From UHGV virus genome UHGV-1639218: 22,738 bases of DNA; one strand, written 5' to 3'. Positions 21,051 through 22,587 of this stretch are shown piece after piece; position 1 is the first letter of the stretch; every line of letters begins with the position of its first letter. The notes under the pieces were generated by a model. The model was not told the origin of the DNA. It saw only the letters and a list, made by a program, of their open reading frames with translations, and did no database searches. The translations under genes and the position numbers were made by a program. This DNA comes from a virus.

Positions 21051-21124
21051 ATTTCCAAGAATTGTATTATAAATTAATCTTTATTGTTTCATGCAAAATT
21101 ATTTTTTGTCGTCTTAACAGAAAG

Positions 21125-21160
21125 TGTGAAACTTGTCTCTTGTTTACATTTTGTTGCATT
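21125..21160 (+). promoter_or_regulatory. Candidate OmpR-box-like element upstream of the porin gene
   Basis: TTTACATTTTG at 21143-21153 matches the core of E. coli ompC/ompF OmpR sites as recalled. Embedded in a 200-bp AT-rich intergenic region. Confidence 0.3.
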
Positions 21161-21252
21161 TAATGAATTGAATTCAGAATTTGTAGTAAAATATTTTAAC
21201 TGGCGTTCATGACAGCCCAATTCATGAATAGTTCAATTAAAATAAGGAACAA

Positions 21253-22389
21253 ATGATGAAAAAAATGACAGTGGCACTTTCAGCCGTGGCTGCGGCTGTG
21301 ATTTTTGCAGCTGGTGCGCAGGCTGCGGAAGTATATAACAAAGATAGCAATAAGCTTGATCTGTATGGACGTGTAACGGCACTGCATTATTTCTCCAGCG
21401 ATAAGGGAAATGATGGTGATCGGACATATGCACGTCTGGGCTTTAAAGGTGAAACTCAGATTAATGATCAACTGACCGGTTTTGGTCAGTGGGAATATCA
21501 GTTCTCTGGTAATAAAACTGAATCAGACGGTGCTGCGGGTAATAAGACTCGTCTGGCGTTTGCAGGTCTGAAGTTCGGTGACTTTGGCAGCATTGATTAT
21601 GGTCGTAACTATGGTATTGCGTATGATGTTGGTGCTTATACCGACGTATTACCAGAGTTTGGTGGTGATGGCTGGACCCAGACCGATAACTTCATGACTG
21701 CCCGTACTTCTGGTGTGGCGACTTACCGTAATACTGATTTCTTTGGACTTGTTGATGGCCTGAATTTTGCAGCTCAGTATCAGGGCAAGAATGAACGTGA
21801 TGACCTTCAGGAAGCTAATGGTGATGGTTATGGTTTCTCTGCCAGTTATGAATATGAAGGTTTTGGTATCGTGGCTGCATATACTAACGCAGACCGTACC
21901 AACAATCAGGTGAAAGGCCTGAATGGTACGCAAACAGTAAACGGTACTCAAACAGTTGTTGATTCCGGCAGTGTTGCAAAAGGTAAACACGCTGAGATGT
22001 GGGGCACCGGGCTTAAATATGATGCCAACAACATTTATCTGGCGACAATATATTCTGAGACTCAGAATATGACGACCTTTGGCGACAAAGGGGTGGCAGA
22101 TAAAGCCCAGAACTTTGAAGCGGTATTACAGTATCAGTTTGATTTCGGTTTGCGTCCATCTCTGGCGTTCCTGCAGTCTCGTGCTCAGGATATAATTGTC
22201 GGTGGTAAAAACTATGGCAATCAGGATCTGGTTAAATATATTGATGTGGGTACAACATATTATTTTAATAAAAATATGTCCACCTATGTTGATTATAAAA
22301 TCAATCTGATTGATGAAAGTCAGTTTACCCAGGATGCAGGTGTTGCAACGGATAATATCGTTGCCGTTGGTATGACTTATCAGTTCTGA
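21253..22389 (+). CDS. Outer membrane porin, OmpC/NmpC/Lc family (phage-encoded)
   Basis: 378-aa ORF with signal peptide ending [10 protein letters not shown], then [74 protein letters not shown], and C-terminal YQF: a near-textbook general porin. Confidence 0.9.
21922..21957 (+). repeat. Tandem 18-bp repeat encoding NGTQTV twice within a porin loop
   Basis: AATGGTACGCAAACAGTA followed by AACGGTACTCAAACAGTT; the 3 mismatches are all synonymous third-position changes. Confidence 0.85.
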
Positions 22390-22550
22390 TGATAACTGGT
22401 GAGTGAACAAATACAGACCATCTGCCCTCACAGATGGTCTGTATCGGTGAAAGTATAGTTTTCACCGGTCACTGCAAACGGCAATTAGCCGATTTAATTT
22501 TCATTTTATTACCTTCATTGCTTTCGATTTTTAATTGAACTTTTTTGTTC

Positions 22551-22573
22551 GGGGCGCATTGCGCCCCTTTTTT
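22551..22573 (+). terminator. Intrinsic terminator between the porin gene and minor tail L
   Basis: GGGGCGC (22551-22557) pairs with GCGCCCC (22561-22567), followed by TTTTTT. Preceded by a 12-bp-stem hairpin at 22413-22442. Confidence 0.6.
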
Positions 22574-22587
22574 ATGGGTGGAAGTTT

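Follow-up and report, generated by a model that had tools for sequence, protein, structure and literature searches.

A phage porin cassette at the tail gene M-L junction of a lambdoid prophage, with an IpeX-like 3′ untranslated region and a candidate OmpR site

The cassette and its porin gene

The window analysed here is the whole 22,738-nucleotide stretch of the virus genome UHGV-1639218, and the element of interest is a porin gene that lies, with its flanking DNA, between two genes of the phage tail operon. To its left is minor tail gene M (20709-21050; Pfam PF05939, E 9.7e-29). To its right are the junction and the start of minor tail gene L (22574-22738), which has its ATG at 22588 and only a partial match to TIGR01600 because the end of the window cuts the gene. 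All of the window features described below are on the plus strand unless stated otherwise. Positions that had been assigned in a preceding sequence-only reading of this DNA were correct to within 1-2 nt.

Comparative analysis identifies the region as a 1.54-kb moron, probably a lysogenic-conversion cassette, located exactly between M and L in a lambdoid E. coli prophage. Such cassettes are present or absent among close relatives, deviate in composition, and carry their own terminator, and the region has each of these properties. The GC content is 0.58-0.60 in M and the tape-measure gene, compared with 0.28-0.33 in the 202-nt spacer upstream of the porin and 0.35-0.46 in the porin itself, which agrees with the earlier description of AT-rich DNA amid GC-rich phage genes. 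Phage BP-4795 and many Shiga toxin (Stx) phages lack the cassette. Their M and L genes are ~95 % identical to those in the window and overlap (CTGATGCAGG) with no insert, as expected from the earlier claim that a porin moron had been inserted at this point. Relative to BP-4795, the cassette alters the last three codons of M from VVN to VIS, or to VVR in another allele (window 21039-21050; L178 640-660). It also replaces the stop-start overlap of M and L, such that a Shine-Dalgarno (SD)-like GGGTGGA for L is supplied by the 3′ end of the cassette (22574-22590), 15 nt past a strong terminator.

Sequences related to M and L occur in 1879 of 5426 complete E. coli genomes. A query spanning M, the porin and L aligned by megablast over at least 80 % of its length in 91 of these genomes, and the 3′ untranslated region (3′ UTR) of the porin is present in 111, falling into identity classes of 100, 87, 79, 76 and 75 %. 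Thus, the cassette occurs in approximately 2 % of the complete genomes of E. coli, and among these are many isolates that produce Shiga toxin or come from livestock. For comparison we used five divergent alleles (L004-L008) and 30 loci from IMG/VR. Among 36 loci, porins at least 84 % identical to that of the window are always located between M and L, whereas those with 72 % identity or less are always located elsewhere. The identity of M across the porin-carrying M-L loci ranges from 45 to 100 %. Two loci (L005 and L124) carry the same cassette at the M-L junction although their M is only 45 % identical to that of the window. This arrangement implies either transfer of the cassette from one tail module to another or its co-transfer through recombination in L. 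In one fully annotated copy, the prophage adjoins potB and seems mostly complete. The identical prophage of strain 2017.17.03CC has a portal gene annotated with a frameshift (L001 3875-6459), and therefore that copy may be defective.

The porin gene extends from 21256 to 22389 and encodes 377 amino acids including a signal peptide when the RefSeq start is used. An alternative in-frame ATG at 21253 creates an open reading frame (ORF) of 378 amino acids (21253-22389). The match to Pfam Porin_1 (PF00267) spans the full model (1-337/337, E 2.8e-142). Alignment with OmpC, OmpF and NmpC reveals the hallmarks of porins in the translation, including a signal peptide followed by AEVYNKD, the L3 constriction motif PEFGGD, and a C-terminal YQF. 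The gene is therefore complete, with the signal peptide, beta-barrel motifs and terminal residues that had been noted for it. The solved structures of OmpC, OmpF, PhoE and OmpK36/37 were matched at E-values of 1e-105 to 1e-130, with OmpK37 and OmpC giving the best values (E ~1e-130).

The NCBIfam subfamily-type model 'porin OmpC' was passed narrowly (504.8 bits versus a cut-off of 484), close relatives come nearly all from E. coli and are annotated merely as 'porin OmpC', and the PHROGs entry for the family reads 'unknown function'. At the amino acid level, the porin is 74 % identical to NmpC, 65 % to OmpC, 64 % to OmpN and 63 % to OmpF, and the signal peptide MKK(L/M)TVA(I/L)SAVAA is common to the window porin, NmpC and Lc. 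Because of this closer identity and shared signal peptide we rejected the possibility of an OmpC orthologue; moreover, the gene resides in a prophage tail operon and not in the ompC-micF locus. Despite its database name, the protein is on these comparisons a sister lineage of the phage porins NmpC and Lc. Hence, the NmpC/Lc portion of the earlier label 'OmpC/NmpC/Lc-type' is retained, whereas the protein is not OmpC proper.

A tandem 18-nt duplication at 21922-21956, a direct repeat encoding NGTQTV twice, lies inside a hypervariable surface loop that aligns with L5 of OmpC and is ~15-30 residues longer than in OmpC, OmpF or NmpC. Differences among the aligned L004-L008 alleles cluster in this loop as dense substitutions and indels of up to 10 amino acids. 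A 371-amino-acid porin variant with 97 % identity (P0001) may be short of one NGTQTV copy. Fourfold degenerate sites in the porin gene are only 44-51 % identical between divergent alleles and thus near saturation, and yet the ORF is intact in all of them, which indicates purifying selection.

A porin gene between M and L was not found described in the searchable literature, which comprised open-access papers only. The genome paper for enteroaggregative E. coli (EAEC) 042 names a 'phylogenetically distinct porin Ec042-2121' (PMC2808357). Ec042-2121 might belong to the family of the window porin. In the one EAEC 042 prophage that was inspected, M and L are adjacent with no porin between them.

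The 3′ untranslated region and its complementarity to porin mRNAs

The ~190-nt 3′ UTR is the most informative part of the locus. Hairpin 1 (22411-22444) is a perfect 14-bp stem that is not followed by a U tract and was rejected as a terminator for this reason. Double-sided changes affect three of its pairs within the M-L family, and nine when the nmpC and lc sequences are added. Hairpin 2 (22445-22467) has 10 bp with four compensatory pairs, and 100 % of its alignment cells are paired. Hairpin 3 (22476-22495) is short in the window allele and is extended in other alleles by an inserted inner stem. There follow a predicted single-stranded antisense segment that resembles the MicF seed (22493-22527) and a short element, TTTTAATTGAACT (22529-22541). 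The region ends in a Rho-independent terminator, GGGGCGCATTGCGCCCC plus T6 (22551-22573), with a 7-bp all-GC stem and a U-rich stretch ahead of it as in the 3′ ends of Hfq-dependent small RNAs (sRNAs).

Several observations support this architecture. The 3′ UTR has a folding z-score of -6.45 relative to shuffled sequences. Across 10 distinct variants, the three hairpins and the terminator are 99.3 % paired with 8 double-sided pair changes, compared with 0-3 in slid controls. Hairpin stems are only 69-81 % identical between divergent alleles, with pairing held by compensation. The terminator stem is invariant in the 10 variants, and the terminator region is 83-89 % identical between divergent alleles. 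Hairpins and an intrinsic terminator had been predicted downstream of the porin and both are present, although they are more than the parts of a terminator and belong to a conserved RNA that carries the antisense segment.

A covariance model (R1) built from the M-L 3′ UTRs recovered the 3′ UTR of nmpC/lc over its full length, from stop codon to terminator, in 10 of 10 loci (38-43 bits, E 3e-7 to 3e-6). The same model had no match in 628 kb around the chromosomal porins of other Enterobacterales. In contrast to R1, nhmmer with the 3′ UTR alignment matched nmpC/lc only at the terminator-proximal part (E ~0.4), and therefore a structure-aware model was needed. A MAFFT alignment of the two groups (A4) was unreliable. 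In a joint alignment of the M-L and nmpC/lc sequences, hairpins 1 and 2 and the terminator are kept, 95 % of cells are paired, and 19 pairs are double-changed versus 2-6 in slid controls; this alignment was fitted to model R1, which favours structure. The single strands of IpeX and the L006 allele are locally homologous (p 0.001). At gathering thresholds, Rfam reports nothing in the cassette, and it contains no family that recognises the nmpC/lc 3′ UTR and no IpeX family. The stretch of nmpC/lc from porin stop codon to terminator corresponds to the published IpeX RNA, which lowers OmpC and OmpF (PMC12197685, PMC5069750, PMC7177473). By homology to this part of the nmpC/lc cassettes, the 3′ UTR of the window is an IpeX-like structured RNA.

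The single-stranded segment is notable for its likeness to the antisense strand of host porin translation starts. Positions 22493-22511 (TTTAATTTTCATTTTATTA) are identical at 17 of 19 positions to the antisense strand of E. coli ompC from -8 to +11, and the L006 allele is identical to that strand save for a 1-nt deletion. An invariant core, TTATTACCTT (22506-22515), is together with TCAT antisense to the ompF sequence AUGAGGGUAAUAA, and positions 22501-22518 pair with the ompF sequence AUGAGGGUAAUAAA to form 14 contiguous bp. Between divergent alleles, the single-stranded stretch (A5 columns 119-150) is 81-88 % identical, compared with 44-51 % at the synonymous fourfold sites of the porin gene and 41-68 % in neighbouring 3′ UTR columns.

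Energy calculations agree with these alignments. For four alleles, duplexes with the ompC and ompF starts rank in the top 0.05-1.1 % of 2000 background windows, whereas the energies with ompA and ompN are not outstanding. These values were obtained with 65-nt windows, as RNAduplex gave meaningless over-extended duplexes on long sequences. An nhmmer search with the 3′ UTR profile mainly retrieved the minus strand of OmpF-type translation starts in Serratia, Pantoea and Enterobacter. Its other matches were the cassette family itself, the terminator-proximal part of nmpC/lc, and a few scattered weak hits (E 0.05-8).

The Rfam MicF model (RF00033) matches positions 22490-22576 over its full length but weakly, and membership in this family was rejected because the score of 26.6 bits (E 0.41) is below the gathering score of 79. 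The antisense stretch can be aligned with the MicF seed over 32 positions, of which 30 agree, and the alignment has two 1-nt gaps. The RNA may work like MicF though it is outside the MicF family.

A separate antisense match is carried by the IpeX lineage. The IpeX strand AACCUUCUGUUAUAU...CCUUUAUUU (L003 ~2395-2440, minus strand) is complementary to the ompC leader AAAUAAAGG...AUAUAACAGAGGGUU at -35 to -8. The predicted pairing includes 15 bp, one of them G·U, plus 9 bp, and its energy of -26.7 kcal/mol beats all 2000 background windows.

The 3′ UTR is also complementary to the leader of its own mRNA. A leader element, AGTTCAATTAAAA (21230-21242), is located just upstream of the SD sequence (AAGGA, 21245-21249), and in the window allele AGUUCAAUUAAAA (21230-21242) and UUUUAAUUGAACU (22529-22541) are a perfect 13-bp complement. 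The helix is kept in all alleles, with two double-change columns (A·U to G·C and A·U to U·A), and is absent from nmpC/IpeX. This conservation suggests a role in self-regulation or in a 5′-3′ interaction.

The upstream region and a candidate OmpR site

Most of the spacer between M and the porin gene has diverged among alleles. The exceptions in the allele alignment (A1) are invariant blocks, including AAAGTG (21121-21126), TTTACATT (21143-21150), ATTGAA (21167-21172), AATATTTT (21190-21197), GTTCATGACA, TGAATAGTTC and the SD sequence.

The second of these blocks begins an OmpR-box-like 20-mer, TTTACATTTTGTTGCATTTA (21143-21162), composed of two 10-bp half-sites and matching the start of the C1 site of ompC. 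The 11-mer TTTACATTTTG at 21143-21153, which had already been proposed as an OmpR-like motif, equals the first 11 nt of C1. With up to one mismatch it occurs twice in the window, the sole exact copy being at 21143, compared with a mean of 0.28 in dinucleotide-preserving shuffles. The K-12 ompC upstream sequence holds CCCTTGCATTTACATTTTGAAACATCTA, and a published OmpR-binding oligonucleotide identifies this sequence as the C1 site (PMC2586830). Identity to C1 is longer in other alleles, reaching 17 nt in the L006 type (CTTGCATTTACATTTTG) and 16 nt in the L004 type (TTTACATTTTGAAACA). TTTACATT[T/C]T is retained in every one of the 17 distinct upstream variants, and each continues with a second half-site that fits (G/C)-W-W-R-C-A/G, while fourfold sites between the divergent alleles are near saturation. 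The absence of this motif from related porin morons had been named in advance as grounds for refuting OmpR control. The motif is conserved in all M-L cassettes examined, whereas nmpC and lc have no OmpR-like box at the aligned position.

A position matrix was built from six ompC and ompF sequences, verified in K-12, which we take to be OmpR sites. With this matrix, the site at 21143 ranks first of 45,438 positions with a score of 16.2 (known sites score 6.7-20.3). A matrix made from the ompF sites only also places 21143 first in the window.

Downstream of the box there is a putative weak sigma-70 promoter (21168-21197), which falls on two of the invariant blocks (ATTGAA and AATATTTT), with a -35 element TTGAAT (21168-21173), an 18-bp spacer and a -10 element TATTTT (21192-21197). 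Transcription from this promoter would start near 21204 and place the OmpR-like box at about -61 to -42, where ompC and ompF have their promoter-proximal OmpR site.

Upstream of the OmpR-like box lies a second block (21108-21132, core AAAGTG at 21121-21126) that shares homology with the chromosomal spacer between micF and ompC, on the side of the micF promoter. In the L004 allele (57-86 of its spacer), this block is identical at 25 of 29 positions to the K-12 micF-ompC spacer (L002; z 5.8). On the minus strand it resembles what we take to be the consensus of a marbox, the box bound by MarA, SoxS and Rob. A divergent micF-like gene upstream of the porin was considered and rejected, as there is no minus-strand terminator and no Rfam match. 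The block may thus be a vestige of an ompC-type locus, because no such gene or terminator follows it.

A donor of the upstream region was sought in 80 chromosomal porin loci, and the C1 box alone matched, in ompC of E. coli and Enterobacter. In both the window and ompC, the second block and the C1-like box are collinear, with the block corresponding to the micF-proximal part of the same intergenic region. The two arrangements differ in that ~90 bp between the homologous blocks are missing in the window. In addition, ompC has three tandem OmpR sites compared with one evident 20-bp site in the window, and C1 is at -100 in ompC whereas the window box is beside the putative -35 element. Because both the C1-like box and the second block are homologous to the region upstream of ompC, the regulatory region looks like a compacted ompC-type upstream region joined to a leader, gene and 3′ UTR of nmpC type.

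Possible function, alternatives and related systems

The demonstrated anatomy, homology, conservation, RNA structure and complementarity form the basis of the following proposal, from which we infer promoter activity, OmpR dependence, RNA processing, repression of ompC and ompF, and a benefit to phage or host. The cassette is rather likely a porin-replacement moron of the Lc/NmpC-IpeX kind, consisting of an OmpR-type regulatory region, a phage porin and an antisense 3′ UTR. Transcription of the cassette in the lysogen is probably governed by EnvZ/OmpR, since the 20-bp OmpR-type site is conserved and directly adjoins a weak -35 element. A weak promoter within the cassette, dependent on an activator, would fire with phosphorylated OmpR bound beside the -35 element, and transcription would end at 22573. 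The 3′ end of the mRNA, either whole or cut in the AU-rich stretch after hairpin 3, would then expose the antisense segment beside the U-tailed terminator, which is the usual layout of Hfq-dependent sRNAs derived from 3′ UTRs. Pairing of this segment with the ribosome-binding and start regions of ompC and ompF would lower their translation. A phage porin whose surface loop is different and evolves fast would take the place of OmpC and OmpF, and the cell would keep solute uptake while losing both host proteins as receptors for other phages and colicins. In lytic growth, Q-modified polymerase would pass the terminator, and L would be translated from the SD sequence that the cassette supplies. 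A parallel to the proposed replacement is seen in lysogens of phage PA-2, in which Lc appears and OmpC falls.

Several results weigh against this proposal. The duplex statistics are moderate (p 0.0005-0.011), and in a cofold test 1 of 36 unrelated translation starts beat ompF. The 3′ UTR pairs with the leader of the cassette about as well as with ompC and ompF, which complicates a simple model of repressing the host while sparing itself. Reviews describe IpeX as being without complementarity to its targets and acting without base pairing (PMC3617542, PMC10690425). In the upstream region, the second OmpR half-site of the window allele reads GTTGCA instead of GTTACA, and the OmpR matrix is crude, as it derives from six AT-rich sites only. 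When C1 is omitted, the matrix ranks 21143 sixth and the upstream region is not significant relative to shuffles (p 0.12). The placement of the promoter is tentative because its hexamers, with 8 of 12 consensus matches, were missed by a consensus scanner.

Some of these results would be expected if the locus were a porin moron only, with hairpins that stabilise the mRNA or aid termination and an antisense likeness that is an evolutionary relic lacking a regulatory role, such as a fragment of a porin 5′ end that was taken up in inverted orientation as the cassette arose. The published view of IpeX as an indirect regulator and the moderate duplex p-values are compatible with this explanation, as is the promiscuous pairing of AU-rich RNAs. 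We consider it unlikely because the antisense stretch is more conserved than synonymous sites and also exceeds its 3′ UTR neighbours, whereas a relic would decay. Furthermore, the predicted fold leaves the stretch unpaired, immediately ahead of a U-tailed terminator, and the independent IpeX lineage retains its own antisense match to ompC.

With respect to the upstream region, the TTTACA box might instead be a binding site for a different member of the OmpR family, for example CpxR, or a -35-like element, in which case the cassette would not be osmoregulated. The reverse complement of the box in the L006 allele, GTAACAAAATGTAAA (GTAAC-N5-GTAAA in some alleles), is near GTAAA-N5-GTAAA, which we take to be the CpxR consensus. 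TTTACA would also be a workable -35 hexamer, and the result with the matrix that leaves out C1 is not significant. This explanation is nevertheless improbable given the 11-17 nt identity to the high-affinity C1 site and the first rank given to the box by the ompF-only matrix. TTTACA was rejected as a -35 element because no acceptable -10 is located 16-18 bp downstream, and binding by OmpR and by CpxR are not mutually exclusive at ompC. It is far less probable still that the gene is silent cargo, or is expressed only with the late operon during lytic growth and has no role in the lysogen. Its orientation is that of the late operon and no strong promoter is detectable. Against this, purifying selection has kept the ORF intact, the upstream footprints are conserved, a strong terminator directly after the cassette is typical of autonomously transcribed morons, and a porin has no obvious use during lysis.

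A porin-replacement moron therefore remains the reading that we favour, and a more general version of it can be proposed tentatively. Phage porin cassettes might be complete replacement modules in which an antisense RNA in the 3′ UTR pairs directly with host porin leaders, with the M-L variant adding an OmpR-controlled region of ompC type and pairing between its own leader and 3′ UTR. If so, the phage porin would be induced by the signal that induces ompC, would silence ompC and ompF, and would possibly tune itself. Direct pairing would also overturn the textbook view of IpeX as an RNA that acts without base pairing.

The closest known systems are lc of phage PA-2 and nmpC of DLP12. Like the window cassette, they include a phage-borne general porin (74 % amino acid identity) with the same type of signal peptide, a homologous leader block (TGACA...AATAGTTCA), and a 3′ UTR with hairpins, an AU-rich single strand and a GGGGCG terminator. 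They differ in location and orientation, being found between Q and the lysis genes (S) and against the late operon, whereas the window cassette is between M and L on the late strand. In addition, CRP sites are annotated in the GenBank record for lc, which contrasts with the OmpR-like box of the window. The antisense matches also differ, since that of IpeX covers -35 to -8 of ompC whereas the window segment spans the start codon of ompC and the SD region of ompF.

MicF, the chromosomal anti-ompF RNA, resembles the window RNA in its core, UUAUUACC-UCAU, which is antisense to the ompF SD and start region, and in the order of a single-stranded seed followed by a terminator. On the chromosome, MicF is activated by OmpR, and the window cassette has a putative OmpR box. 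Unlike MicF, which is an independent gene divergent from ompC, the window RNA is the same-strand 3′ UTR of a porin mRNA, and it is predicted to target ompC also, which MicF is not.

Other lambdoid morons, such as lom, bor and HK97 gp15, are likewise extra genes of deviant composition that have their own signals and terminator and are variably present between late genes. The cargo of the window cassette is distinct in being a porin plus a putative regulatory RNA. The moron concept itself is reportedly due to Juhala, Hendrix and co-workers. Salmonella OmpD and the OmpD-type porins of Enterobacter and Citrobacter belong to the same clade as the window porin (66-70 % identity). Unlike it, they are chromosomal and have a ~20-nt 3′ UTR followed by a plain terminator with no IpeX-like module.

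The porin morons Lc and NmpC, as well as IpeX, are already known. The features that appear to be new here are the porin lineage, the fixed M-L position on the late strand, the C1-like region of ompC type, the antisense segment directed at the ompC start and ompF SD region, and the leader-3′ UTR pairing. None of these five was found described in the searchable open-access literature.

Nutrients and many antibiotics enter the cell chiefly through porins, which also serve as receptors for many phages and colicins and are major antigens. A swap of OmpC and OmpF for a loop-variable phage porin would at a stroke change the permeability and antigenicity of the cell and its susceptibility to phages and colicins. 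The candidate antisense RNA would provide a concrete mechanism for the change in receptor availability that the sequence-only reading had proposed. It also offers a testable base-pairing model for IpeX-type RNAs, whose action reviews still call unexplained or indirect. Furthermore, the cassette appears to be a case in which a phage has borrowed the host OmpR signal for its cargo.

Two minor observations concern the remainder of the prophage. The C-terminus of its J protein resembles those of VT1-Sakai and 2G7b-type phages, a comparison that gave no receptor assignment. The sole Rfam match in the window at gathering thresholds is to the sRNA family STnc100, which is strongly matched at 1031-1240 on the plus strand (160 bits versus a gathering score of 47).

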